A DNA stretch of 64,000 nt from a virus (IMGVR_UViG_3300037475_000162:888-64887), one strand, 5' to 3'. Shown: positions 6,199 through 61,099, numbered from the stretch's first letter. Notes: generated by a model from the letters alone, not told the origin. Numbers and translations: made by a program.

Positions 6199-9100
6199 GC
6201 GTCTACATCGCCACCTCCGAAGCGCCGCCCGCATTCGTCGCCAGCAACACCGGCTGGGGAGAGTTCTGCCGCTGGGCCGAGCATCTCGAAGGCGCGCCTG
6301 CGGCGGCGCACCTCGCGGCCTACGGATGGACGGACGACGTGGAGGAGTTGGCCGGCGAACTGCAAGACGCGACCGGTGCGGACGACGACGTCAAGGCTGT
6401 GGCGGCCACGCTTTGCGGTTTGCTCGACGGCGCCGAGACCGTGGTTGTCACGGACGGCGTGTCGCCCGGCGACGGCGGCAGCGACCCCGACAGCTTCGGC
6501 GAAGACCATCCGTCTCCTGACGACGCCCCGGATCTCGCCGAGTTTTACGCCTCCCTCTGCAACGACCTCGCCGCGGCCGGCGACGACCCCGGCGACGTCG
6601 CCGACGAGGCGAGCGAGGAGCTTGCCGCCGACGGCTGGAGCATCGTGGAGGACGGCGGGAAGTGGAAGGCGAGCCATGAGAGCGAGGCGGACGCCGACGA
6701 GGAAGCGGAAAAGTTCACCGAGCGGGCGCCGAAAGGCGGCGTGTCGATCGGGGGCAAGTTCTTCGCCGGCGGCAAATGGATTCCCAACAAGGATCTCGCC
6801 AACGCCTCCCCGGAAGACAAGGCGAAGCTCGCCGCCGCGAAGGCTGACTCCGACACGAAGGCCGCCGGCCGCAAGCAGGAGCGCGCCGGTCGCGGCAGCA
6901 TCGACGTCAGGGGCCTGCAAGACCGCCTGGCGAAGCACGCCGGCGCCCACACGCTGACAGGCAGGGAGCGGGGCGGGGCGGCTGCGATTGCCACGCTCTT
7001 GCACCGGCACCACGGCGAGCTGGCGCTGCACCGCGTCGAGGAACTGGCCGACCGCGTCGAGCGGACGCTGAAGACCATCGGCGACGACCACCCCAACAGC
7101 GAGGGGCTGCGGCAGCAGTTCGGGAAGAGGCTGGCGCAACTGCACGCGGCGGCGGAGCGGCTGGGCGCGAAGGGCGTCACTGGCAAGGTGGAGAAGCCGA
7201 AGCAGGCTGCTTCACCGCAGGCAAATAAATCCGCCAATCCGGCGGCCGACGCCGCGGCGCTGCACGGCGACGTCGCCCGGCGACTGATAGCGATGAACAA
7301 GATGCCGCCGGAAGAGGCGAAGGAAGCCTACGCCGCGCTGCACAAGGACGTGGTCGATCGATTGCGGGCGATGGACGTGGCGCACCAGCCCTTGAGCGGG
7401 CTTCGCGAGATTGCCAGGGCGGTGCCCGGGGCCAACCCGCGCGGCAGCGCCCACGACGTGGCTGACTCCATTGTGCGGACCATCCTCTCGCCCATGATGA
7501 TCAGCCTGGAGGGGCATGGCACGACGGGGGCGCAGTTCCCCGAGGACGTCTTCCCTTCGCGGCCGGAGAAGACGGACCGCCGCCAGGCGGCCGAGCAAGC
7601 GAAGGCCGACCGGCAGCAGGCCGGCCTGAAGCGGCAGGAGCAGGAGCGGCAGCAGCAGGCCGCCGCCGCCTCGCCGCAGGCAAAAACCGCCGCCGCCGCC
7701 GTCAAGGCCGTCCAGCATGGAGCGGCGAACGGAACGGGCAAGGCCGACCTCGACGCGAAGCTCGACGCGCTCGATCTGCCGTCCATGTCCCCGGCCGACC
7801 TACAAGGCGCGGCGCGCGTGCTGGGGGTGAACGCCTCTGGCGGCAAGGCCGAGCTGATCGGCCGAATTCGCCGATCGGTCCATGAGATACCCGAGATCCG
7901 CCTGGCCGGCGCAGGCAGCGTATCGCCCGCGCCCGCAGCGAAGCCCGAAGGCGAGGGCGCGGCATACCTCGCCGCGAAGCTCAAGGGCATGGGCGTTCCT
8001 GACGGTCCGCGCGCCCTTCCCGCCTCGCGGCCGGGCAAGACCCCGGCCGAGCATCAGGCGGCGGTGATGGAGTCGATCCGCCGGGCCGGGCTGAAGCCGG
8101 GCGGACTGCTGTCGCTGGCGAAACTGCACCTCGCCACGGGCTTGCCGCTGGCCGACATGCACGCCGCCGTCAACGACCTGCGCCGGCAGGGCAAGCTGAC
8201 GGGCACGCGGCACGAAAGCCGTGGCGGCCTGCCGCGGGACGTGGCCGCGGCGGCGCTGACGGACCCCGGCGGCGGGCAGATTCACCATGTGAGCGTGCGG
8301 GAGGAAGGCGGCGGGCATGGGCCGGCCAGGCACGCCGAACGCTTCCCCCGCCTTGCATCCGCCCTGCTGCGGTTCAGCGAGGGCGGCGGCAGCGACCTGC
8401 ACCGGATCAACGGCATCGAGTTGTTCGCCACGGGCAACCACCGCGGCGTGGACTACACCCTCGACGACCTGAAGGACATGGTGCGGAATTTCGAGGAGTA
8501 CAGCGCCCCGCGAGAGAACAGGGCGCCGCGGCAAGCGATGCCGTTTGTGATTGGCCACGGCGAGGACCAGTCCATCCTCGAGCGCAGCGACCTGCCCGCG
8601 GCGGGATGGTTCAAGCAGCTGGGAATTCGCCCGTCGCCGATCCCGGAAGACCCCGGCCGGTACGTCCTGGAGGGGGACGCGGCCGACGTGCCGGGCAAGG
8701 TGGCGCGGCTGATCAGGAGCCGCGCCTACCCGAAGGTCAGCCTGGAGATTTACCCTCCGGAACTGCACCCGTTCAAGGGACGGGGAATGATGGCGCGTCG
8801 CGCGGCCATGCTCGGCGGCGACGTGCCCCAGGTGAAGGACCTCGACGACATCCCGAGGCCCGAGCCGATGAGCGAGCCGGCGCGACGCTGGCCGACAATC
8901 TTACGATTCAGCGAGTCCGCCACGGTTCGCGGCTGTCTCGCCTTCTTTTCCGAGGTGATCGACATGGACCCCGAACAGTTGAAAAGCAAGCTGGTCGAGC
9001 AGCACGGCATGGATCCGGCGGCCGTCGAGAAGATGCACCCCGACGCGATGGCCGAGGTGTGTAGGAAAATGGACGAGAAGGACGCGAAGGCCGGCATGGA

Positions 9101-36347: not shown

Positions 36348-37520
36348 ATGGCGCGAGCCCCGCGAGTGCCCAGCTACCGACTCCACAAGGCCAGCGGCCA
36401 GGCCGTCGTCACCTTTAGCCGCCACGACGTATACCTGGGCGCCCACGATTCCCCCGAATCCCATGCGCTCTACAAGCGAAAGGTAGCCGAGTGGCTGGCG
36501 GCCGGTTGCCGCCAGCCGCCGCCGGCGGGATCGGCCCTGACAGTGGCCGAATTGATGGCCGCGTACTGGGCGCACGCCAAGACGTACTACGTCAAACACG
36601 GCAAGCCCACCGGACCGCAGAGCCGCATCAGGAGCACCATCTCCATCGTGAACGAGTTGTACGGCGACGATCCGGCCGTGGGATTCAGTCCGCGCGCGCT
36701 GAAGGTTGTGCGGGAAGCGATGGTGGCAAAGGGCTGGAAGCGGAGCACGGTCAACCAGTACACCCAGCTCGTCGTGCAGTCGTTCGCGTGGGCTGTAGAG
36801 GAGGAGTTGGTTGCCGCGAGCGTGCATCACGCGCTCATGGCTGTCGCGCCGCTGAGGAAGGGGCGCACCGCGGCTCCGGAGTCGGAGAAGGTCGATCCGG
36901 CGCCGGAAACATCCATCGACGCCGTACGCCCGGTGCTGACGCCGATGCTCTCCGATGTGATGGACTTCCAGATCCTGACCGCCGCACGGCCTGGCGAGGC
37001 GCTGGCGGTGCGACCGTGCGACCTGGACCGCGAAAGCGAGGTGTGGCTGTACCGGCCGCGGGCGTTCAAGACGGAGCATCACGAGGACGCCGAGCGAGTC
37101 ATCTACATTGGCCCCCGCTGTCAGGCGATTCTGCGTAGGCGGTGGCCGGCCGGGGAAGAGGAGTTCTTCTTTTCGGCAGCGGCCGCAATGGAGGAGCGCT
37201 CGCAGGCGCTACGGGCCGCGAGAAAAACGCCCGTGCCGCTGTCCCAGCAGAACCGCCGCGCCAGGCGGCGAAAGCGACCGTGGGGAAAGCAGTACCGCGT
37301 CTCCAGCTATCAGCACGCCGTTGCCAGGGCGTGCGAGCGGGTCGGGTGCGAACACTTTTACCCCCACCAGCTTCGCCACAACGCCGGAACGCGGATCAGG
37401 GCGGAATTCGGTCTGGAGGTTGCCGCAGTGATCATGGGGCACGCACACCTCTCCACCGCAGAAATCTACGCGGAACAGGATCTTGCCGCAGCCGTCAAGG
37501 CCATGAAGGTCGTTGGCTGA
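36348..37520 (+). CDS. int: Tyrosine integrase
   Basis: AARPGE (R), KT, HQLRH, MGH and EIY catalytic motifs; N-terminal PSYRLHKASGQAVV...YLG as recalled from planctomycete integrases. Confidence 0.95.
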   Translation: MARAPRVPSYRLHKASGQAVVTFSRHDVYLGAHDSPESHALYKRKVAEWLAAGCRQPPPAGSALTVAELMAAYWAHAKTYYVKHGKPTGPQSRIRSTISIVNELYGDDPAVGFSPRALKVVREAMVAKGWKRSTVNQYTQLVVQSFAWAVEEELVAASVHHALMAVAPLRKGRTAAPESEKVDPAPETSIDAVRPVLTPMLSDVMDFQILTAARPGEALAVRPCDLDRESEVWLYRPRAFKTEHHEDAERVIYIGPRCQAILRRRWPAGEEEFFFSAAAAMEERSQALRAARKTPVPLSQQNRRARRRKRPWGKQYRVSSYQHAVARACERVGCEHFYPHQLRHNAGTRIRAEFGLEVAAVIMGHAHLSTAEIYAEQDLAAAVKAMKVVG

Positions 37521-41362: not shown

Positions 41363-42010
41363 GTGAGCGACTGGACCAATCTCCTGAGCGCCGCCGCCGC
41401 CGATCCGGCCGACGTGCTGCCCCGCATGCAGATGGCGGACCATCTGCGCGACGAGGGGCGCAGCGAGGCGGTTGCCCTGGAGTCGTTCGGGCCGATGCCG
41501 TTTTCGTGGTGGTCGAACGAACGGCTGTTTTTCGACAGCAGCAGCGGCAGCGGCAGCGGCAGAGGCAGCGGCAGCGGCATCGGCAGCGGCATCGGCAGAG
41601 GCAGCGGCATCGGCAGAGGCAGCGGCAGAGGCAGCGGCAGCGGCAGCGGCAGCGGCAGCGGCATCGGCAGCGGCATCGGCAGCGGCATCGGCAGCGGCAG
41701 CGGCAGCGGCAGCGGCAGCGGCAGCGGAGTCTTCTTCATGGAAACCGGCAAGGCGTACCTCGTTCACTGCGGCGACTGGCACACGATTGTCGGGCGCGTC
41801 GTCCGCCAGGCCGGCCCATTTCTCTACGAGATGGAGACGGTCTCAAAAATCTCCGAGACGAACAACGGAGATTGCTGGGAGGAACTGGCGGGCGGAAACG
41901 TACAGATGCGCGCCGCCTGCAACTACAAGCACTACAAGGTGCGCGCCCTGGTGCCCTTGAATGTGCTCTGTTTTGAATGGCTCGGATTACTTCCACAGGA
42001 GGCCCTCTGA
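41363..42010 (+). CDS. TIGR02996-like N-terminus, (Gly-Ser/Ile/Arg)n linker, small C-terminal domain
   Basis: LLSAAAADPADVLPRMQMADHLRDEG; GGAGAGGAG ribosome-binding site. Confidence 0.65.
   Translation: MSDWTNLLSAAAADPADVLPRMQMADHLRDEGRSEAVALESFGPMPFSWWSNERLFFDSSSGSGSGRGSGSGIGSGIGRGSGIGRGSGRGSGSGSGSGSGIGSGIGSGIGSGSGSGSGSGSGVFFMETGKAYLVHCGDWHTIVGRVVRQAGPFLYEMETVSKISETNNGDCWEELAGGNVQMRAACNYKHYKVRALVPLNVLCFEWLGLLPQEAL
41537..41727 (+). repeat. Hexamer tandem repeat (GGCAGC/GGCATC/GGCAGA)n, about 30 units
   Basis: Read directly from the sequence. Confidence 0.95.
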
Positions 42011-42157
42011 CGGGAGAGGAGCAAGGATGCTCGATGACTGGCAGTTGGTGTCGCAGATCGTGGCCGTGGAGATCGCCGGTCCCTGCCTGTTGGCGGCCCT
42101 GGGGCTGGCGGTGTACCTGATGGAGCGGTGGACCCGGCCGGCAGGAGATCCGAGACG

Positions 42158-43279
42158 ATGAATTTGCCCCTACTCGCTCCGACCACTGACAACACCATCG
42201 CCTCGACGCCCGAGGTGGACGGACTGCTTGCCGCTGAGGCCCCCGTGGCAATCGGTGTCAGCGGCGGAAAGGACTCCTGCGCCATGGCCTTCGCTCTCGT
42301 CGAGCAACTCGACGGCATCGGGCACGCTGGCCCGCGAATCCTCATCCACAGCGACCTGGGGCGGACGGAGTGGAAGGACAGCCTCCCCACCTGCGAGAGG
42401 CTGGCGAAGGCAACCGGCGTTGAACTCGTCGTCGTCCGCCGCAAGGCCGGCGACATGCTGGCCCGCTGGCAGGGCCGGTGGACGAACAACGTCGAGCGAT
42501 ACCTGACGCTCTCCTGCGTCAAGCTGATCCTACCCTGGTCCACGCCGTCGATGCGGTTCTGCACGTCGGAACTCAAGATGGACGTGATCTGTGCGGAGCT
42601 GGTCCGCCGGTTTGGCGGCCGGACCATCCTCAGCGCCAGCGGCATCCGCGCCGATGAGAGCGCCAACCGGGCCCAGGCCCCTGTTGCCAAGCGGCAGCCG
42701 AAGCTGTGCCGCGCGTCGCGCAAGCCGGTGCGGATCACAACCGGCCTGGACTGGCACCCCATTCTCCGCTGGTCGGTCGATGACGTGTGGAGTCTGTGCC
42801 GGCAGCGGGGCTTCCTCATGCATGAGGCGTACACGCGCTACGGCAGCAGCCGGGTTTCCTGCTGCTTCTGCATCCTGGGAAACAACGGCGACCTTCTCGC
42901 CGCCGCCGGGTGCGACGACAACCACGACCTGTACCGGCAGATGGTTGCCCTTGAGGCTGTGTCCACGTTCGCCTTCCAGGGCGGCGAATGGCTTGGAGAC
43001 GTGGCCCCGCACCTGCTCACAGCCGAAATACTGGACGGCGTCCGGCAGGCCAAGGAGGCGGGCAAGCGTCGTGAGGCAGCAGAGGCTCGCATCCCGAAGC
43101 ACCTGCTCTACACCAAGGGCTGGCCTACCTGTGTGCCGGCCCACGAAGAGGCGGTCCTGCTGGCGTCCGTCCGGCTCGCCGTGGCGACCGCCGTTGGCCT
43201 GACACCTACATTCACCGACCCCGACCAGATCATCGCCCGTTATGAGGAGCTTATGCGCATGAAGGCAGAACGAAACTGA
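42158..43279 (+). CDS. PAPS-reductase-family (PP-loop) protein
   Basis: VSGGKDS, CTSELK, GIRADES..RA, PILRW and Y...SSRVSCCFC. Confidence 0.88.
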   Translation: MNLPLLAPTTDNTIASTPEVDGLLAAEAPVAIGVSGGKDSCAMAFALVEQLDGIGHAGPRILIHSDLGRTEWKDSLPTCERLAKATGVELVVVRRKAGDMLARWQGRWTNNVERYLTLSCVKLILPWSTPSMRFCTSELKMDVICAELVRRFGGRTILSASGIRADESANRAQAPVAKRQPKLCRASRKPVRITTGLDWHPILRWSVDDVWSLCRQRGFLMHEAYTRYGSSRVSCCFCILGNNGDLLAAAGCDDNHDLYRQMVALEAVSTFAFQGGEWLGDVAPHLLTAEILDGVRQAKEAGKRREAAEARIPKHLLYTKGWPTCVPAHEEAVLLASVRLAVATAVGLTPTFTDPDQIIARYEELMRMKAERN

Positions 43280-43485
43280 CAGCCCCTCCCCTCCGCGCCG
43301 TCGGGACGTTCCCGGCGGGAGCCACGTGGGAATCGGGTCTGCGGAGGGGAGGCGACCCACGAGGCAAGACGGAGTCCAGCGTCCGATGTCGCGACCAGCA
43401 GCCTTCCGCGAGTCTCTGGTCCACCTCCTGGCACGAGGTCGCGACGATCGGCGCTCCGTTACGGCGCCCCGCGAGGGGGCAGGTC

Positions 43486-54020: not shown

Positions 54021-54424
54021 AGATCTTCCTCAGCAGCAGATACTCTCGCCGCCTTGAGATGTGCGACGTGCGGGAAGTGCTGGAGGCGAAAGGCCACACG
54101 GTCACAAGCCGCTGGCTCGACACCATGTGGCGCGAAACCGACGAGCACGGGAGCGCGTCGGCCCCGCCTGCACACCGTGCGGAGTACGCCGTCAAGGACC
54201 TCGAAGACGTGGCCGCGGCCCAGTGCCTGATCGCCTTCACCGAACCGCCGCGCAGCAACGGCCGCGGCGGACGGCACGTGGAACTGGGCGCCGCGCTGGC
54301 GCTGGGCAAGCGGGTCGTGGTGGTTGGGTTCCGGGAGAACCTCTTCTGCCACCATCCAGCCGTGGAGTTCTTCGACTCGGCCCAGATCATGCTGCACACC
54401 CTCTTCTTCCGTCCCCTGGAGTAA
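54017..54424 (+). CDS. Nucleoside 2-deoxyribosyltransferase-like protein
   Basis: MKIFLSS...TSRW...DLEDV..A..L...GGRHVELGAALALGK. Confidence 0.75.
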   Translation: MKIFLSSRYSRRLEMCDVREVLEAKGHTVTSRWLDTMWRETDEHGSASAPPAHRAEYAVKDLEDVAAAQCLIAFTEPPRSNGRGGRHVELGAALALGKRVVVVGFRENLFCHHPAVEFFDSAQIMLHTLFFRPLE

Positions 54425-54430
54425 CCTGTT

Positions 54431-54919
54431 ATGGCAACCGCCTCTCCCCTGAAACCGCCCATCGACGTCCTGGAGATCCCCCTCGAGGACCTGGTCCTGC
54501 CCCGCGGCGTCCTGCGCAAGCTCCAGGACGTCGGCTATCGCACGCTCGGCCAGCTGTGGAAGCTGGCCCCGTCGGGCCCCGACGAGCTGACCGAGGCCCT
54601 TGCGTCGATCAAGGGCATCACGGCCCAGAAGGCCGGCGAGGCCTCCGAGGCTGTCTGGGCGATGATCGCCGCCCGCGAGATCGCCGCCCGGCAGGATGGC
54701 GCAGAGCAGGCGCCTGCACCCGCCGCCGACGGCGCCCCCTTCGACGCGCTCCTGGCCGAGATCATGCCGCCGGAGTGGGCCCAGGCGCTGGACCGCGCCG
54801 GCATGGTCACCATCCAGGATGCCCGCGACGCCGCGGCGATGGCGCAGACGCCGCTGGCGCTGGAACTGGCGAAGCACCCAATTGGAGGAAGACCATGCAG
54901 CCAACGCCTGAAGACATGA
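54431..54919 (+). CDS. RNA polymerase alpha-CTD-like / HhH protein
   Basis: LEIPLEDLVL...LRKLQDVGYRTLGQL...LASIKGI..KAGE; second degenerate copy ALDRAGMVTIQD. Confidence 0.6.
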   Translation: MATASPLKPPIDVLEIPLEDLVLPRGVLRKLQDVGYRTLGQLWKLAPSGPDELTEALASIKGITAQKAGEASEAVWAMIAAREIAARQDGAEQAPAPAADGAPFDALLAEIMPPEWAQALDRAGMVTIQDARDAAAMAQTPLALELAKHPIGGRPCSQRLKT

Positions 54920-55158
54920 GCCGCGATCTTGTGGCCGACCTCGCCGTGATCGAGGCAAGGCCGCAGGATGTGGCTGGTATCACAGCAAAACTGATCTGCC
55001 GGGAGCAGGCGTGCCCCGCCGCGATCCGCCGCGCCTGGGCGGCCGAGGCGATCCTGGCGCGGCTGGTCGAATATTGCCCCAGAGGGAACGACGACGTGGG
55101 CGCTCTGTGGCAGATCGTCCAGGACGCCCGGGTGCTGCTGGGGAAGGAGCAGTCATGA
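54895..55158 (+). CDS. Hypothetical protein
   Basis: GGAGG ribosome-binding site. Confidence 0.5.
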   Translation: MQPTPEDMSRDLVADLAVIEARPQDVAGITAKLICREQACPAAIRRAWAAEAILARLVEYCPRGNDDVGALWQIVQDARVLLGKEQS

Positions 55159-55400
55159 TCCCCACCCAGGAGCTGCTCGACGCCGTCCGCGCCGTCTTTC
55201 GCGACGAGCTGGACACGTCCGCCTTCCTCGAAGACGCCGCGCGCTGGGAGAAGATCGCGCTGCAGGCCCGCGAAATTCGCCGGCTGCGCGCCGAGCTGCG
55301 GACGCTCCGGCGGATGCTGCTGGGGTTTGCGGAGCGGATTTATCTCCAATCGGAACTGCTGAGCCGGAAGGCGGAGAAGGTGGACGCCGGCAGGGAGTAA
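55155..55400 (+). CDS. Hypothetical coiled-coil protein
   Basis: AAGGAG ribosome-binding site; ATGA overlap. Confidence 0.5.
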   Translation: MIPTQELLDAVRAVFRDELDTSAFLEDAARWEKIALQAREIRRLRAELRTLRRMLLGFAERIYLQSELLSRKAEKVDAGRE

Positions 55401-55404
55401 CGCC

Positions 55405-55743
55405 ATGACCCAGAAAGAACACGCCAAACTGATCCAGCTTCTCGACCAACCCGGCGCCGTCCAGGTCGCAGTGCGCCACCTCTGGCAGCGCCACGTTCAA
55501 TTTCTCGCCGTCGTGCAGATCGTCCGCGAGCTGGAAGACATCCATGCCCGCACGCGGTTGTGTCAGCTCAAAAAGCTGATCCAGCAGGCCTGGGACCGCA
55601 TCGAGAGTCGCCACGAACGCTCGGGGGCCCCGATGCCTCCCGAGATTTGCGAGGCGCAGGACGATTTCCGACGTGCGATCCGTGACTGGTTTTCGCTGGA
55701 CTGCACTTGCAGCGCCTGTCAGTCCAGCGACCCAAAAGAGTAG
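55405..55743 (+). CDS. Hypothetical protein
   Basis: GGGAG ribosome-binding site. Confidence 0.5.
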   Translation: MTQKEHAKLIQLLDQPGAVQVAVRHLWQRHVQFLAVVQIVRELEDIHARTRLCQLKKLIQQAWDRIESRHERSGAPMPPEICEAQDDFRRAIRDWFSLDCTCSACQSSDPKE

Positions 55744-55912
55744 CGCCGCGCACGGACCGCGCGGCGGGGCGTCAGGACGACGCGCGCAGGGCCGGGGTCA
55801 TGGCCGGGATTGATACCTGACCATTTCCGCGCGCCGTCCGTCGAACTGCTGCCGCGGCGCGGGAACAGCAGAGGGAGGATGGCTGCGAAGCTGGCGTTTG
55901 GACAGTCACCAC

Positions 55913-55949
55913 GGTAGACTACGGTACTCTAGTATGGTAGACTATCGGC
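55913..55949 (+). promoter_or_regulatory. Promoter/operator for an apparently leaderless XRE gene
   Basis: TAGACT-N17-TAGACT with extended TG; ATG 6 nt downstream; GGTAGACTA direct repeat. Confidence 0.55.
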
Positions 55950-56246
55950 ATGAGCGACACACCATCTATCCCTGAGTCCTACTTCTCCCGGCGACTGGTC
56001 GAGTTGCGCGAGGCTCGCGGCCTGAGCCGCTACCGGCTGGCGCAGCTTGCCACCGCGGCCGGTTATCCGATTACGGACGCCGCGCTCGCCAAGCTGGAGC
56101 GCGACAGCCGGCCCTATCTGGAGACGGCCGCTGCACTGGCCGCCGCACTTGGCGTCCAGATCGCCGAACTTGTTGACCCGGACCGTTTTCCGCAGGCCGA
56201 AAAGAAAAGCGGAAAAAATCCGAAGAAAATGCAAAACTGCGGTTGA
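55950..56246 (+). CDS. XRE-family HTH repressor
   Basis: RLVELREARGLSRYRLA...LAKLE...P....A.ALA.ALGV...L. Confidence 0.88.
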   Translation: MSDTPSIPESYFSRRLVELREARGLSRYRLAQLATAAGYPITDAALAKLERDSRPYLETAAALAAALGVQIAELVDPDRFPQAEKKSGKNPKKMQNCG

Positions 56247-56271
56247 CTACGATACCGCAGTAGCGTATCAT
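56241..56271 (+). promoter_or_regulatory. Near-consensus sigma70 promoter with an operator-like copy
   Basis: TTGACT-N17-TATCAT; GGTTGACTACGATAC matches GGTAGACTACGGTAC at 55913 (13/15). Confidence 0.7.
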
Positions 56272-56337
56272 TGAGCATGTGAGACAACGAGGACGCCGGC
56301 CCGCAACACGCGGCCGGCAGACGAAGGAGACGAGACG

Positions 56338-56595
56338 ATGGCGATTCCAATTCCGTGCGGCCCAGGGCGCATACAACTCAGCGATGGCCGGATCGTGGAT
56401 GTCCCTCCGCGATCCCACCAGATCGCAGAGGAGGTGCGGATTCGCTGGACTGACCACCGGTTTACCCCGCCGTTGGTCAGCGAGCATATCGCGTTCGGCT
56501 GCTCGCGCAGCGAGCCGGCGTGCTGGATCACCCAGCGGCCGAACGGCACGCGATTGTGGATCTTGTGCAGCGAGTGCGAGGTTGTCTCCTCCTGA
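56338..56595 (+). CDS. Small hypothetical protein (array gene 1)
   Basis: AAGGAG ribosome-binding site. Confidence 0.6.
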   Translation: MAIPIPCGPGRIQLSDGRIVDVPPRSHQIAEEVRIRWTDHRFTPPLVSEHIAFGCSRSEPACWITQRPNGTRLWILCSECEVVSS

Positions 56596-56680
56596 CCCCC
56601 TCCCCCCGCCTCCCCGGACGTTCCGGGGCGGCGGGATCGAGACGCCTGATGAGTGACCCCCATCTCTGGAGACGAGAGCG

Positions 56681-56893
56681 ATGGACGAGCACTTCCTGGT
56701 TCTCCGCCGAGAGTTCGGCGGAAACTCTGGCCCGGGAAATGGGTGGGCGGCCCGGGACGAGGTGCAGATTATGGCTGCTGCGCGCACGGAGGCGGCGGCC
56801 CGCCGCCTCCAGAAGAACCTCGGCGGCTGGGTCGAGCGGGCCAAGGGTCCGCTCCGGAAATACGAGAGGAACGAATTCCTCCGGTACTGCTGA
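56681..56893 (+). CDS. Small hypothetical protein (array gene 2)
   Basis: Stop codon abuts repeat 1. Confidence 0.55.
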   Translation: MDEHFLVLRREFGGNSGPGNGWAARDEVQIMAAARTEAAARRLQKNLGGWVERAKGPLRKYERNEFLRYC

Positions 56894-56947
56894 CCCCACC
56901 CCTTCGCCCGCCGCGCCGGCCGGTTGCCGGCAGGGAGGATTCAGACG

Positions 56948-57367
56948 ATGGCAAAGGAACTGGAGATCGTCGCAGCGTCCTACCGGCGCGGCTTCACCGG
57001 CCGCGACCACCTTCTTGACGACGACGATTTCCGGCCCATCGTTGGCCGGATCTTCAGCAGCGAGGCGAAAGCCTACGCTGCCGCCGAAAAACTCAAGCGG
57101 AGTGGGGCGCCCGTCAGTCTGGTGCTGGTCGCGCCCAAGGAGCCGACCAGCGACTATTCCGGGGTGACCAGGGTGGCCGTGTCGTGGATCGGGTCGATCC
57201 ACGACGGATATTACGACGCGGAGGTTTGGGCGGGCGATCAGCAACTTGACGGCCCGTCGAATCCCCTCTTCCCGGTCGGCGTTCGCGACCGGGAATACGG
57301 CTACACAGACGAGTTGCGTCGGGAGTTGCGCCGGGCGTTCCCGCGGGCAGAAATCGATATCCGCTGA
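56948..57367 (+). CDS. Hypothetical protein (array gene 3)
   Basis: ATG right after repeat 1; stop before repeat 2. Confidence 0.7.
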   Translation: MAKELEIVAASYRRGFTGRDHLLDDDDFRPIVGRIFSSEAKAYAAAEKLKRSGAPVSLVLVAPKEPTSDYSGVTRVAVSWIGSIHDGYYDAEVWAGDQQLDGPSNPLFPVGVRDREYGYTDELRRELRRAFPRAEIDIR

Positions 57368-57423
57368 GTGACCCCCTTCGCCCACCGCGCCGGCCGGCAG
57401 CCGGCAGGAAGGATTGAGGCGAT

Positions 57424-57645
57424 ATGTGGGAGATCGAAGAACTGACCGAATCGGGCCAGTATTCCGGCGAGGGGATCGCCGATGGATCGACGACGGTGAG
57501 CCTCTACGACGCCGTCGCCATGATCGCGGATTTGGGACGGGACGGCGACTTTCGCGTCCTCTCCGAAGGAGAGGAAGCCTGGTCGGGCACTCGCGCCGAA
57601 GCGAACGAGTGGTGCGATGAGATGCTCGCCGCCAGGGGCCGCTGA
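57424..57645 (+). CDS. Small acidic protein (array gene 4)
   Basis: Bounded by repeats 2 and 3. Confidence 0.7.
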   Translation: MWEIEELTESGQYSGEGIADGSTTVSLYDAVAMIADLGRDGDFRVLSEGEEAWSGTRAEANEWCDEMLAARGR

Positions 57646-57698
57646 CCCACGCCCCCTTCGCCCACCGCGCCGGCCGGCAGCCGGCATGGAGGATTGAG

Positions 57699-57980
57699 AT
57701 GATGCCGACGACGGCCGATATCGCCTCCCTCTGCGCCGCCATCGACGCCGGGGACGCCGCCTGCCTGCCGATTCTGGCGGACGCCCTGGAGGAGGCTGGC
57801 GATCCGCGGGCGGCGGGGCTGCGGCGCAGCAAACGCCCTGGGTGCAGCGTGGGGCACTACTCGGATTACGGCTGGTATTACAGCTATGTGGTGGGGTGCG
57901 GCGGGATCACCCCGCCGACCTACTACCCCACCCGCCATGAGGCCTTCCTCGCCCTGGCGGCGGCGCTGGCCGACGTGTAA
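57699..57980 (+). CDS. TIGR02996-like protein (array gene 5)
   Basis: LCAAIDAGD..CLPILADALEEAGDPRA. Confidence 0.7.
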   Translation: MMPTTADIASLCAAIDAGDAACLPILADALEEAGDPRAAGLRRSKRPGCSVGHYSDYGWYYSYVVGCGGITPPTYYPTRHEAFLALAAALADV

Positions 57981-57992
57981 AGGAGATACGCT

Positions 57993-58502
57993 ATGGTGCT
58001 GACGGCCGATATCGCCTCCCTCTGCGCCGCCATCGACGCCGGGGACGACGGCGCCCTGCCGATCCTGGCGGACGCCCTGGAAGAGGCTGGGCTGCTGCCG
58101 GAGATGTGCCTGTCCATCTGCATCCCGGAGGACAACCCCCACGGGCAGAATGCCGAATTCGACGTGCGGCCTGAAGGGGAACCCCACGCGCACGGCCGGC
58201 GTCTCGCGGCCCCGGGCCGGCCCTTCGACGGCGACGAAGGGCGCGCCAGCGGGGGCGGCCGGACCGGCTACTACGAGCCGGACGAGTGGCTCGTCCCCGA
58301 GGCGGCCGCTCGCCTCGTCTGGTCGTCATGGTCCGATGACGGCGACGGGACATACGCCTCCCTCACGGAGTGTCTGGCGTTCGTGCGGGAATATCGCGGC
58401 CGGCCCGGCGACTTCCCCGGGCTGGCCGAACATTACCCCCATGCCGCAGCTGCGTACAGGGCGGCCGCCGTGGCCGCCTACCAGGAGTCCGCCCATGGCT
58501 GA
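57993..58502 (+). CDS. Paralogue with the same N-terminus and an unrelated C-terminus (array gene 6)
   Basis: AAGGAG ribosome-binding site; first ~90 nt nearly identical to the 57699 ORF. Confidence 0.7.
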   Translation: MVLTADIASLCAAIDAGDDGALPILADALEEAGLLPEMCLSICIPEDNPHGQNAEFDVRPEGEPHAHGRRLAAPGRPFDGDEGRASGGGRTGYYEPDEWLVPEAAARLVWSSWSDDGDGTYASLTECLAFVREYRGRPGDFPGLAEHYPHAAAAYRAAAVAAYQESAHG

Positions 58503-58932
58503 GCCCCTCGTCCCTCGCGACCCGCTGGGCATACCCCGGCGGGTACTCTTCCGCTGCTGCGCGGACGTGCTGTTCGCGCAGGCCGACCGCCTGCGTTCGC
58601 TCACGCCCTCCCGGTCGGGAGGCCGGCGCGGCCCAGGCGCGTACGCCGGCGCGGCGGCCAAGGTCGAGGCGCGCCGGCGCATCGCCCAGAACCTGGCGGC
58701 GCACGCCGTGCGCCTCCGCGCGATGGACCGGGACGCCCTGGCCCTGGCCGGCCCCACCGTTGACGCCGCCGTGGCCGGCTACCTGCTGGCGTGGTGCGCC
58801 GGGGCGGAGGAGATGTGGCGGGAGCTGGACCTGGAGCTCCTGGAGCAGTACGGGCGCAGTCCGCTGCCGAGCCTGGATCGGCACGACCTGAGCGGGGTGT
58901 GCCAGGCCGTGGCGGATGCGTGCCGGGAGTGA
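58495..58932 (+). CDS. Hypothetical protein
   Basis: AGGAG ribosome-binding site; overlap. Confidence 0.55.
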   Translation: MAEPLVPRDPLGIPRRVLFRCCADVLFAQADRLRSLTPSRSGGRRGPGAYAGAAAKVEARRRIAQNLAAHAVRLRAMDRDALALAGPTVDAAVAGYLLAWCAGAEEMWRELDLELLEQYGRSPLPSLDRHDLSGVCQAVADACRE

Positions 58933-58989
58933 GTCGCCCGACGTATATCATGTGCGGCCCACTGTTGGCCGCGAGAAAAGGAGACGGCA

Positions 58990-59178
58990 ATGGCAATTCC
59001 CGAGCGCGTCCTCAAAGCGGCGCGCGACGACAGCAAGCAGCTCTGGGAGGTGACCGAGTGGCAGGGTGGTGTGCTTGTGCGCATCGTCACCACAGAGGAG
59101 TACCGTTACGCCGCGATGGTCGCGGCAGACATGCGCCGTGCGGGGTTTGCTGCGGGTATTCGGCCTGCGGTGAGCTAG
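58990..59178 (+). CDS. Small hypothetical protein
   Basis: AAGGAG ribosome-binding site. Confidence 0.55.
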   Translation: MAIPERVLKAARDDSKQLWEVTEWQGGVLVRIVTTEEYRYAAMVAADMRRAGFAAGIRPAVS

Positions 59179-59375
59179 CCCTGCCCCTCTCTCCAGCCTC
59201 TCCTTCGCGGGGAGGCTGGGTGCGTTTCCGCCCCCTCCCCTCCTTTCCCATTCTTCCGCGCGGTACAATCCATCTGTCGGTGTCCTGTCCACGCCGCTTG
59301 GCGTCAATGCAGGACGCGCGTTCTCCCCCGCGCCAGTCTGGGATCTCCACTCCCCTCCGCGAGGAGACGCGCGCC

Positions 59376-59888
59376 ATGTCCGCACCTGGCTCTTCCCCCG
59401 CGCCCGGACCGCGCCCCGAAGTCACACGCCCTGACGCCCTGGCTCACCTCGACCTCGTCCACCACGGCGTCCGCCGCTACCGGCGGCGCTACCGCAGCAC
59501 GGTAACCGGCGAGGACCTCTTCCAGGAGGCCGCCGTGGCCGTCCTGCTGGCGCTGGCCGCGTACGATCCGCCGGCGCACGGCCCGATCGACGACTACATC
59601 TCGCGCAAGGTCGCCAGCCGGCTGCGCAGCTACTGCCGCCGCGAGGCCCGCCAGGCCGTCCGCGAGCAGCCGCTGGACGACGCCGCGGGCCCGGACGCCA
59701 GCGACGTCCGCGGCGAGGTCCTGGCGCTGGCGTCCGCCGTGCTGCCCGACGAGCAGCGAGAGATCGTCTGTCTGCTCATCGACGGCTGGACGGTGGCGCA
59801 AATCGCCGAGCTGCTCGGCTCTCCCGAGGGTACGATTCGCTGGCTGAAGGCCGAGGCCTTTGCCCGGCTGCGTGCGGCCGACGAATAA
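59376..59888 (+). CDS. Sigma-70/ECF-type sigma factor, candidate late-gene activator
   Basis: Region 2 LV...RRY...EDLFQEA..A.L; region 4 LPDEQREIV.L...GWT..QIAELLG..EGTIR. Confidence 0.8.
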   Translation: MSAPGSSPAPGPRPEVTRPDALAHLDLVHHGVRRYRRRYRSTVTGEDLFQEAAVAVLLALAAYDPPAHGPIDDYISRKVASRLRSYCRREARQAVREQPLDDAAGPDASDVRGEVLALASAVLPDEQREIVCLLIDGWTVAQIAELLGSPEGTIRWLKAEAFARLRAADE

Positions 59889-60007
59889 TTTTGCGAATCG
59901 CGCCAACACTTTTGCCCCGATCCTGTCCCTATATCTGTGGAGCAACAGAGAAGAGAATAAGCCACAAGGCTAGTCGCGTAAGAAATGCGCGCCGAGAGGA
60001 ACCCCGC

Positions 60008-61099
60008 ATGACCGCACGTCGCAAGACCGGCGCTCGCCCTTCCCCGCGGCACGTCCTGGCCGGCGCCACCCCTCACCGGATCGTCGGCGCCACTCCGGCA
60101 GCGTGGATTCAACTTCCGCAGAAGCTCTCCATGTGGCTCAACGACGTGGACGGCGACTGCGTGACGGCGGAAGAGGCGTTCGCTCGCGCCTGTTCCGGCA
60201 TCCTGATTGCCGACGCCACCGTGCAGGCCTGGGCGTCGGCCCACGGCGTTCTCAACGGCGCCGACCTGGCCGAAGTCCTCGACTGGATGGCGCAGAAGGG
60301 CTTTGCCCAGGACGGCAACCTCTACGGCGCCGGCGGCAAGTCGTCCATCGACTACACCAGCGCCGCCGTGCTGCAAAACGCGATCTATCACGGCCCCGTC
60401 AAGATCGGCGTCGCTGCGGCTCAGCTCCAGAACGTGGTGGGCAACGGCAACGGCTGGTTCGCCGTGGGCTTCAGCACGGATCAGAACCTCGACCACTGCG
60501 TCTCGCTGTGCGGCTACGGTACGCTGTCCTGGCTCGCCCAGCAGCTCGGCGTCTCGGTCCCCGCCGGCATCGACGGGACGAAGCAGGGCTACGCCCTCTT
60601 TACCTGGGACACGGTCGGAATCATCGATGCGGCCAGCATGGTCGCCATCACCGGGGAGGCCTGGCTGCGGACTCCGACCACGGTTGTCGTCGGCGCCAAC
60701 CCGGTTCCGGCCGATCCGGTGTACACGCCGGTTCCGCTTCCGCCCGCGCCTCCAATCCCGGTTCCTCCCGTGCCGGTTCCCGCCGGCCCAACGGAGGAGC
60801 AGGTGCAGGGGGCGGTTGACGCCCTCTGGGCGCACCACCGGCTGGTGAGCAAGGCGCAGATCGACCAGGCGATTCAGCAGGTCTTTGCGGCGCACGCCCC
60901 CGCGGCGGCCGGCTTCGCCCTGCCGTCGATCGATTGGCGGAGTATCGAAGAGCAGGTTCGCGCCTGGATCGCGGAGTTCGGCCCGCTCGCGAAGCCCGCG
61001 ATTCTGCAAGCCATCGACGCCTCGTCCATGAGCGCCGCGGAGAAGATGCTGGCGACGTCGCTGGTCAACTACCTGCTGCCGGGAAGCGCGGCGGCCTGA
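60008..61099 (+). CDS. Papain-like cysteine peptidase with a Pro-rich linker
   Basis: LNDVDGDCV.A (catalytic Cys), DHCV.LCGY (His), FTW. Confidence 0.6.
   Translation: MTARRKTGARPSPRHVLAGATPHRIVGATPAAWIQLPQKLSMWLNDVDGDCVTAEEAFARACSGILIADATVQAWASAHGVLNGADLAEVLDWMAQKGFAQDGNLYGAGGKSSIDYTSAAVLQNAIYHGPVKIGVAAAQLQNVVGNGNGWFAVGFSTDQNLDHCVSLCGYGTLSWLAQQLGVSVPAGIDGTKQGYALFTWDTVGIIDAASMVAITGEAWLRTPTTVVVGANPVPADPVYTPVPLPPAPPIPVPPVPVPAGPTEEQVQGAVDALWAHHRLVSKAQIDQAIQQVFAAHAPAAAGFALPSIDWRSIEEQVRAWIAEFGPLAKPAILQAIDASSMSAAEKMLATSLVNYLLPGSAAA

Follow-up and report, generated by a model that had tools for sequence, protein, structure and literature searches.

A 64,000-nt window of viral DNA (bases 888–64887 of the 64,887-bp IMG/VR virus record IMGVR_UViG_3300037475_000162; positions are counted from the first base of the window) contains an operon of eight small genes, several of whose intergenic gaps are filled by copies of one short element, a hairpin followed by a Shine-Dalgarno (SD) sequence. 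We call the three near-identical copies R1, R2 and R3, and two decayed ones c4 and c5. The record is linear, with a completeness of 99% (CheckV), a G+C content of 67% and nearly all genes on the plus strand. It represents a temperate soil phage of high GC whose head module is Mu-like, with a portal of Mu type and a major head protein of gpT type. The closest cultured phages are distant (portal identity at most 24% by tblastn), and the candidate host link is a weak helicase match, 45% over 68 residues, to an Isosphaeraceae metagenome-assembled genome (G001), the sole genome match. The genes and units of the operon are as follows, with protein lengths in amino acids (aa), isoelectric points (pI), G+C content at third codon positions (GC3) and scores of a covariance model built from R1–R3.

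56338–56595, plus strand: gene 1, 85 aa, Cys-rich, no family, GC3 0.80
56591–56644, plus strand: c4, a diverged full unit with the TGA of gene 1, a C-rich tract, a longer hairpin, SD-like GGGAT and an ATG at 56649
56650–56683, plus strand: c5, a truncated unit with the 5′ end TGAGTGACCCCC and the SD and ATG of the gene at 56681, without the hairpin core
56681–56893, plus strand: gene 2, 70 aa, basic (pI 9.84), no family, GC3 0.83
56898–56949, plus strand: R1, predicted hairpin 56915–56931, SD GGAGG, ATG at 56948, 83.0 bits
56948–57367, plus strand: gene 3, a 139-aa ORFan
57372–57423, plus strand: R2, predicted hairpin 57389–57405, SD GAAGG, ATG at 57424, 84.4 bits
57424–57645, plus strand: gene 4, 73 aa, very acidic (pI 4.05), between the two most similar units
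57652–57703, plus strand: R3, predicted hairpin 57669–57685, SD GGAGG, ATG at 57699, 84.4 bits
57699–57980, plus strand: gene 5, 93 aa, of a widespread small-protein family without known function
57993–58502, plus strand: gene 6, 169 aa, with a 12-nt spacer and no repeat unit upstream
58495–58932, plus strand: gene 7, 145 aa, whose start overlaps the stop of gene 6 (ATGGCTGA)
58990–59178, plus strand: gene 8, 62 aa

R1–R3 emerge from a repeat search as 52-nt direct repeats, with R2 as the reference copy (100%) and R1 and R3 at 87% and 92% identity. An initial annotation of this DNA, made from the sequence alone, had described three near-identical units that fill TGA-to-ATG gaps and bring a hairpin and a ribosome-binding site, and the description was borne out (52 nt, 87–100% alike). 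Their 24-nt core, allowing up to three mismatches, has three matches in the window and none in any of 100 dinucleotide shuffles, and the core search over the whole 64,887-bp record finds no copies beyond R1, R2 and R3. The gap from TGA to the next ATG that each unit fills measures 54 nt at R1, 56 nt at R2 and 53 nt at R3. All copies share one orientation, and each unit reads, 5′ to 3′ on the mRNA, as upstream TGA, C-rich tract, short all-G/C hairpin, strong SD and start codon, the SD (GGAGG or GAAGG) lying 6–11 nt upstream of each ATG. The predicted hairpin has a 6-bp GCCGGC/GCCGGC stem and a 5-nt loop; the arms are invariant in R1–R3, while the loop varies (CGGTT vs CGGCA, with R1 differing from R2 and R3).

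Conservation is confined to the units. R2 and R3 are identical over their first 35 nt, where R1 is 91% identical. Ungapped identity between copies is 0.91–1.00 in a 34-nt core and 0.71–0.79 in the following 14 nt, and is asymmetric around the palindrome, extending 17 nt on its 5′ side and 14 nt on its 3′ side. It is intermediate next to the units (0.10–0.50 in the 10 nt 5′ of the core, 0.39–0.57 in the 23 nt beyond the 14-nt tail) and falls to 0.15–0.35 in the outer flanks, where the random expectation is 0.28 ± 0.075. At all three copies the borders coincide exactly with the stop and start codons. Spacers 87–100% alike, set amid coding DNA at background level, cannot come from duplication followed by divergence, so recombination or gene conversion is needed; the sharp borders at gene edges argue the same way, in line with the initial annotation, which saw the repeats as recombination joints.

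The genes of the array are of coding type (GC3 0.79–0.89). BLASTP among 14 neighbouring proteins gives one significant pair, 57699 versus 57993 (85% over 33 N-terminal residues, E 1e-14). Underlying it is a 90-nt direct repeat with 93% identity (57710–57799 and 58001–58090, the first 47 nt identical) that forms the 5′ ends of the adjacent genes 5 and 6, the remainders of which are unrelated. Judged from the sequence, this repeat appears to be a module swap or partial duplication within the array. Proteins of the gene 5 family are 120–150 aa long and conserve both a helical module at the N terminus and a helix at the C terminus; gene 6 joins a gene 5-type N-terminal module to a C-terminal part from a different family. 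Gene 3 has, besides its own protein, a single match in 5.8 billion sequences (54% identity over 45% of the query). The array genes had been called unrelated, in part acidic and 70–140 aa long: the pair 57699/57993 is the sole exception to the first point, three proteins are indeed acidic (pI 4.05, 4.41 and 4.78), and the lengths span a wider range, 70–169 aa. Portable-looking junctions of stop, hairpin, SD and start between unrelated small genes, as then proposed, are what the array contains.

The covariance model, run over the window without filters, recovers the units at 83–84 bits. The fourth-best match is c4 (22.6 bits, E 0.008), which aligns end to end; the matches after it have E values of 0.04 or more and are noise-like. 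c4 has 42 of 59 positions in common with each of R1, R2 and R3 (∼70%), its predicted stem is 12–13 bp long, and its TGA-to-ATG span of 53 nt is within the range of R1–R3. The open reading frame (ORF) opened by its ATG (56649–57167) has G+C of 0.80 at second and 0.68 at third codon positions, a non-coding pattern. Two bases beyond that ATG stands the 12-mer TGAGTGACCCCC, which at up to one mismatch matches the window twice, in c5 and at the 5′ edge of R2. The simplest reading is that c4 and c5 together would be a cassette emptied by gene deletion, with start and stop nearly abutting. Graded decay (R2 equal to R3 over 35 nt, R1 at 91%, c4 at ∼70% over its full length, c5 truncated) and the emptied cassette make c4, c5, R1, R2 and R3 five consecutive junctions derived from one element and differing in age.

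One relative of the 3′-end type lies outside the array:

43279–43320, plus strand: TGA, CCCCTCCCC and a 9-bp hairpin with a c4-like apex, GGACGTTCC

The exact 9-mers CCCCTCCCC and GGACGTTCC are shared between this site and c4 (at 56597 and 56616) and occur only three and two times in the window. Two looser relatives had been named initially; the one at 56591–56644 is supported by the model, and the one near 43283 is not matched at E ≤ 10, though it shares the two 9-mers. The element at 43279–43320 ends a PAPS-reductase-like gene and is followed by ∼200 nt without a start codon, so the 5′ half of a unit (C-rich tract and hairpin) can occur alone as a 3′-end feature. This fits a role for that half at the 3′ end of RNA.

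Among known repeat systems, CRISPR arrays have regular non-coding spacers of similar length, which this array does not: the spacings are 474 and 280 nt, occupied by ORFs with coding GC3. The attC sites of integrons are long, bipartite, imperfect palindromes with inverse core sites, with an integron integrase adjacent and without an SD for the next gene. Like them, the units are repeated imperfect palindromes between small genes that are unrelated, mostly lack promoters of their own and are all oriented alike behind one promoter; unlike them, they have a stem of only 6 bp, carry the SD of the next gene and have no adjacent integron integrase. The early judgement that the array is neither CRISPR-like nor attC-like holds good. 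Temperate phages also have conserved 'boundary' or 'linker' sequences at module junctions, short stretches at gene borders through which unrelated neighbours are swapped by homologous recombination. Those are shared between phages at orthologous junctions, whereas the copies here are paralogous and within one genome.

By analogy, the units are best read as a promoter-less analogue of two elements, the promoter-early stem-loops (PeSLs) of T4-type phages (Arbiol et al. 2010, PMC2839356; Comeau et al. 2014, PMC4122927) and the extended start-associated sequences (ESAS) of Cluster K mycobacteriophages (Pope et al. 2011, PMC3203893); the initial annotation, in presenting a system distinct from all known ones, overlooked both. 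PeSLs have as their defining part a sigma-70 promoter, strong and set in AT-rich sequence, and number ∼50 per genome, their stem-loops lowered expression of a downstream reporter (PMC2839356), and their shuffling and mini-circles have been demonstrated (PMC2839356, PMC4122927). The units resemble them in being a composite intergenic motif that runs from the upstream stop to the next SD and start, in having a G/C-rich stem-loop (6-bp stem and 5-nt loop, longer in c4), and in being concentrated before small ORFans of a plastic early region, where the motif is a proposed homology patch for modular shuffling. They differ in that the defining promoter is missing from all units, a single promoter heading the operon instead; in number, with three copies and one or two decayed ones; and in evidence, the units being known from one genome.

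Start-associated sequences (SAS) and ESAS are described in PMC3203893 as present in 11–19 copies per genome, conserved across six phages and of unknown function; the units number three to five in one genome. Shared with SAS are a conserved, asymmetric, SD-containing motif a few bases before the ATG, in one orientation, at non-structural genes of different families, and a setting in high-GC temperate phages. ESAS have, in addition, an inverted repeat of variable spacer directly upstream, with 17-bp arms; the units have an inverted repeat in this place too, with 6-bp arms and, in R1–R3, a fixed 5-nt spacer. The 3′ part of the unit (GGAGGATTGAG) has only the SD core in common with the published 13-bp SAS consensus; and departures from ESAS lose RNA pairing, whereas c4, the sole diverged copy here, keeps it. 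T4-like phages and mycobacteriophages already offer other forms of junction-element reuse, and the form described here is seen in one genome only. The weight of a single-genome observation is modest; the observation itself is solid, and the mechanism is partly testable by sequence. If this reading is right, junction-element reuse around ORFans extends beyond T4-like coliphages and Cluster K mycobacteriophages, a promoter-less hairpin-plus-SD form exists in an unrelated high-GC temperate soil phage, and shared regulatory spacers gain support as a general route by which accessory genes are gained or lost without breaking expression.

The reading we favour, to which we give about an even chance, is that the units are reiterated intercistronic punctuation acting in the mRNA of a promoter-driven operon of small ORFan genes. 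As position and sequence show, the 3′ half of each unit is the translation-initiation region of the next gene, supplying its ribosome-binding site and start context. The hairpin would insulate or stabilise the cistrons, shielding the upstream message at its 3′ end, or the downstream message, once processed, at its 5′ end, and might also attenuate read-through; this role is suggested by analogy with intercistronic stabiliser hairpins and with the stem-loops of PeSLs. The copies would be footprints left where homologous recombination or gene conversion at a shared spacer, through the RecT-like protein of the phage or through host recombination, added, replaced and removed ORFan genes; R2 and R3 would then be young, c4 old and c5 the scar of a lost gene. 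Several features point to such an origin: the units have sharp borders with genes that are unrelated, the copies decay by degrees, one cassette appears to have been emptied, and a 90-nt coding repeat lies nearby. That 90-nt, 93% homology of genes 5 and 6 shows that local recombination or duplication is active, and the copies could feed homologous recombination among the ORFan genes.

Pairing in the hairpin gives this reading weak support, as a sign of conserved structure. Over the four aligned copies 24 of 24 pair cells are paired, compared with 9–64% in slid controls, and at two of the six pairs changes on both sides keep the pairing, in c4 only (G-C to C-G and C-G to A-U). The covariation check that had been suggested at the outset thus gave two of six pairs doubly changed, in c4, and 31 of 500 shuffles equal the pairing result on an alignment itself fitted to the model.

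That shuffle count is the first of several points that weigh against intercistronic punctuation. With three good copies and one or two decayed ones from a single genome, conservation of structure is barely testable. The units are predicted to fold no more stably than their shuffles (z 0.81, −0.13 and 0.53), and the hairpin is short and unexceptional for a genome of 67% GC. An equally good hairpin lies within 60 nt upstream of 14 of 69 gene starts (20%), against 17% of 3000 random windows; since comparable hairpins precede starts at the background rate, the significance lies in the repeated sequence and not in the stem. Predicted accessibility of the SD is uneven across the units (0.38, 0.65 and 0.15), and the palindrome GCCGGC-N5-GCCGGC would suit a dimeric DNA-binding protein equally well. 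Reads of the region bear on the recombination part of the reading. One DNA run and no RNA run is listed as containing it. The DNA run is kept as contigs; where a repeat is exact over 35 nt, contigs cannot reveal the junctions of deletions or circles, and no joints are listed for the run. Its unitigs break at the repeats; depth is 9.7–11.9 over 57377–58030 compared with 14.8–15.4 in the flanks, a dip within possible noise, and we take the contig data as uninformative on deletion variants. The shared 35-nt unitig has a depth of 29.4, ∼2× that of the flanks (∼15), which argues against a common R2–R3 deletion variant.

Two simpler rules for the hairpin were tried and rejected. One, a hairpin before every SD throughout the phage, fails on the frequencies just given for starts and background (20% and 17%); the other, a uniform switch sequestering the SD by an anti-SD sequence, fails on the range of SD accessibility (0.15–0.65).

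Two further start regions of the phage may be set beside the units as separate observations. A very stable 11-bp intergenic hairpin at 46231–46259 (−30.7 kcal/mol, z −2.85), followed by CCCCTTACCC, precedes an SD region, AGGAGATTG, that resembles the SD region of the units, though the hairpin and the C-tract have changed places. Another conserved start context, TCCCCTGGAG with an ATG after a further 7–9 nt, recurs at the consecutive genes starting at 53568, 54017 and 54431 (within 53550–53588, 54000–54020 and 54412–54450); its predicted SD accessibility is low (0.06–0.25), and it may be a second reused translation-initiation motif in this phage.

The operon is framed by regulatory features as follows.

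55950–56246, plus strand: gene for a 98-aa HTH_3 (Cro/CI-type) regulator (Pfam HTH_3, E 3.7e-9, above cut-off; PHROG transcriptional regulator/repressor families)
56243–56271, plus strand: sigma-70-like promoter, TTGACT-17-TATCAT, by consensus match only (10 of 12 positions)
56295–56318, plus strand: predicted hairpin in the leader, GCCGGCC ... GGCCGGC, immediately 5′ of gene 1's SD
58953–58973, plus strand: predicted 7-bp hairpin, unrelated in sequence to the units, just 5′ of SD AAGGAG and an ATG
59192–59220, plus strand: predicted hairpin with a 12-bp stem, then GUGCGUUUCC (−25.1 kcal/mol, z −2.09; 6 of 200 shuffles do as well)

All unit copies lie between the promoter and the terminal hairpin. 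Within 52500–60500 there are two promoter-like sites (56243–56271 and 59860–59889; shuffle mean 0.5), none of them within R1–R3, c4 or c5, and the units are without an A/T-rich hexamer. A terminator scan of the plus strand over the same interval calls no intrinsic terminator; the unit hairpins precede an A/G-rich SD sequence and no U-run. From its sequence, the hairpin at 59192–59220 is the likely terminator of the operon; being without a run of five T it is not called by the scan. The leader hairpin has a unit-like layout with a different sequence, and its match to the covariance model is weak (7.2 bits, E 7.5). Rfam gives no match in the window at gathering thresholds, and two sub-threshold chance matches in 55800–59400, both intragenic; a tRNA search found none.

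The HTH_3 gene is directly upstream of the operon promoter, and this position bears on an explanation at the level of DNA. The core of the unit could be an operator whose half-sites, one helical turn apart, are bound by a phage regulator (the HTH_3 protein or a small basic protein), controlling the operon as a roadblock or in the manner of a 'stoperator', as the ESAS authors proposed for their inverted repeats. We consider this quite unlikely. It would account for the perfect 6+6 inverted repeat with variable loop and invariant arms in R1–R3, for the nearby regulator gene and for an RNA fold statistically not above shuffles, and DNA binding was what those authors preferred for ESAS (PMC3203893). 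Yet c4 alters the arm sequence and stays paired, which favours structure over a sequence-specific protein site; the hairpin at 43296–43318 includes one G-U pair, which on the opposite strand would be an A-C mismatch; and conservation runs asymmetrically beyond the palindrome, as described above. GCCGGC is, moreover, common in this genome (196 observed vs 192 expected), with three further pairs at a spacing of 3–8 nt elsewhere. A role of GCCGGC as a restriction site is rejected on the same count. As an observation in its own right, the 55 nt (55895–55949) preceding the start of the HTH_3 gene contain two copies of the 9-mer GGTAGACTA, 17 nt apart, an operator-like layout.

The element was sought beyond this genome. 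Two patterns gave no matches in IMG/VR; one 23-nt pattern gave 12 matches in a metagenome collection, all of them chance, none of the 12 continuing like a unit. BLASTN of the operon region against GenBank phages gave no DNA match, and the covariance model found nothing at E ≤ 1 on nine fetched loci (132 kb). As a search for a host repeat we used 401 genomes of the phylum of G001, a choice that follows from the 45%, 68-aa helicase match only; 17 of the 401 have partial matches (23–48 nt, centred on the GC palindrome), none of full length. The expectation from the initial annotation, that the element would recur across other metagenomes with different genes between its copies, thus failed in IMG/VR, the metagenome collection, GenBank phages and the 401 genomes. 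Nor did relatives of the phage itself appear in the collections searched: probes with the 402-aa, 694-aa and 139-aa proteins and with the gene 5 family led to loci that have nothing but the probe gene in common with the phage, the portal-protein probe found no relative, and no syntenic phage relative was found. No such unit lies upstream of the gene 5 homologues that occur in two other viral contigs.

These searches turned up three sequences of separate interest. The 11-mer CCCCTTCGCCC is mildly enriched in one genome (18 vs 4 for the control); a host family based on it is rejected, as 30 of 31 inspected contexts are coding or unrelated, and one has a stop, a C-rich tract and a hairpin. At locus L035 of one bacterial genome (G047:C95, ∼8147–8184, minus strand), 16 nt identical to the 5′ end of R2 (GTGACCCCCTTCGCCC) directly follow an apparent stop codon, and the site continues with a G/C hairpin and a T-rich tail, like a terminator; it is isolated, and we judge it a coincidence. 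Locus L011, from a distant relative (38% helicase identity), has its own 53-nt intergenic element in three copies (846–898, 1420–1472 and 2852–2904), each combining a tract rich in A, TTGCG as a −35-like sequence and the perfect palindrome TGTGTGACCACACA, and resembling a promoter plus operator.

With three near-identical copies only, all within 800 bp of one genome and found nowhere else in the collections searched, the element might be an ordinary spacer (weak hairpin, good SD) without special function, recently copied by local recombination, illegitimate or homologous, or by gene conversion and still undecayed. The unexceptional hairpin, the neighbouring 90-nt coding repeat as evidence of recent local copying, and the decay of the older copies c4 and c5 all agree with this explanation, which we nonetheless regard as unlikely. 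Against it, the borders lie exactly at stop and start codons in all three copies, and c4 retains its length, its hairpin and its SD position at ∼30% divergence. From what single-strand-annealing biology suggests, direct repeats of 35–50 nt near a RecT-type recombinase should also vanish fast unless they are young or selected.

Three further genes lie elsewhere in the window:

36348–37520: tyrosine-integrase-family gene, the sole integrase-family gene found, 20 kb from the array
47662–48597, plus strand: RecT-like single-strand annealing protein (PHROG 561, E 1.5e-18)
49621–51705: AAA protein of primase/helicase type

The initial annotation had pointed to a RecT-like protein, correctly, and to a dedicated cassette-shuffling system, possibly driven by it, in which the repeats act as joints and an anti-defence payload is exchanged between phages. 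The architecture of unit plus small gene, present three to five times, the scar of an emptied cassette, the RecT-like gene and the small acidic proteins without known function speak for such a system, as does the precedent of PeSLs, where recombination between motifs gives indels and mini-circles (PMC2839356). We hold it to be very unlikely, given that no second genome has the element (none in IMG/VR for two patterns, the 12 metagenome matches being chance), that the gene 5 homologues in two viral contigs lack a unit upstream, that no site-specific recombinase is nearby and that no protein is tied to an anti-defence family or fold. A variant without an integrase, in which the RecT-like annealase inserts, deletes or exchanges unit and gene between co-infecting relatives at the ∼35–50-nt units by homology, seems to us a long shot. 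Were it true, the early operon would act much as a recombinase-independent 'integron' sampling genes for host takeover or counter-defence, and the emptied cassette at 56591–56683 a deletion event caught in the sequence.

The proteins themselves give little guidance on payload. None of the eight operon proteins (56338–59178) reaches a Pfam or NCBIfam curated cut-off, and none has a PHROG match. NCBIfam likewise has no match for the N-terminal module of genes 5 and 6 or for eight of its relatives, so that an expected planctomycete repeat-companion domain did not appear. An AlphaFold2 model of gene 5 from a 14-sequence alignment has a predicted local distance difference test (pLDDT) score of 71.6 and no PDB fold match with E < 4. 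The single-sequence model of gene 4 has a pLDDT of 80.0; its best Foldseek E values are 0.63 in PDB and 0.029 in BFVD (to uncharacterised phage proteins), and its best VIA Z-score is 4.3, with 4.0 for phage T4 Dmd and 3.6 for AcrIF9, all of these within noise. The anti-defence payload thus found no support, the eight proteins having no family and the fold searches with both models staying at noise; because no family or significant structural neighbour turned up, 'anti-defence' is a guess, neither supported nor excluded. The analysis does mark 56338–59178 as the plastic early region of the phage, and as a place to look for host-takeover genes.

Some other features of the genome may be recorded. 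Two homopolymer runs, of a kind otherwise absent from the genome, are ∼10 G (49600–49612) 5′ of the start of the 694-aa helicase/primase gene and ∼10 C (52478–52490) 5′ of the gene at 52517; they may be slippage-prone sites or assembly artefacts. At 41500–41740, ∼240 nt of CAGCGG/CATCGG/CAGAGG repeats with 12/18-nt periodicity lie within the ORF 41363–42010, a low-complexity coding repeat whose protein has a weak TrAA12-like match. A nucleoside 2-deoxyribosyltransferase-like protein (54017–54424, E 3.5e-6, slightly below cut-off) and a protein with a PAPS-reductase domain (42128–43279, E 1.6e-8) hint at nucleotide or DNA modification in the early region. Finally, a 257-aa protein at 62984–63757 has a cytochrome c domain (Cytochrome_CBB3, E 1e-6, above cut-off), an unusual auxiliary gene for a phage.

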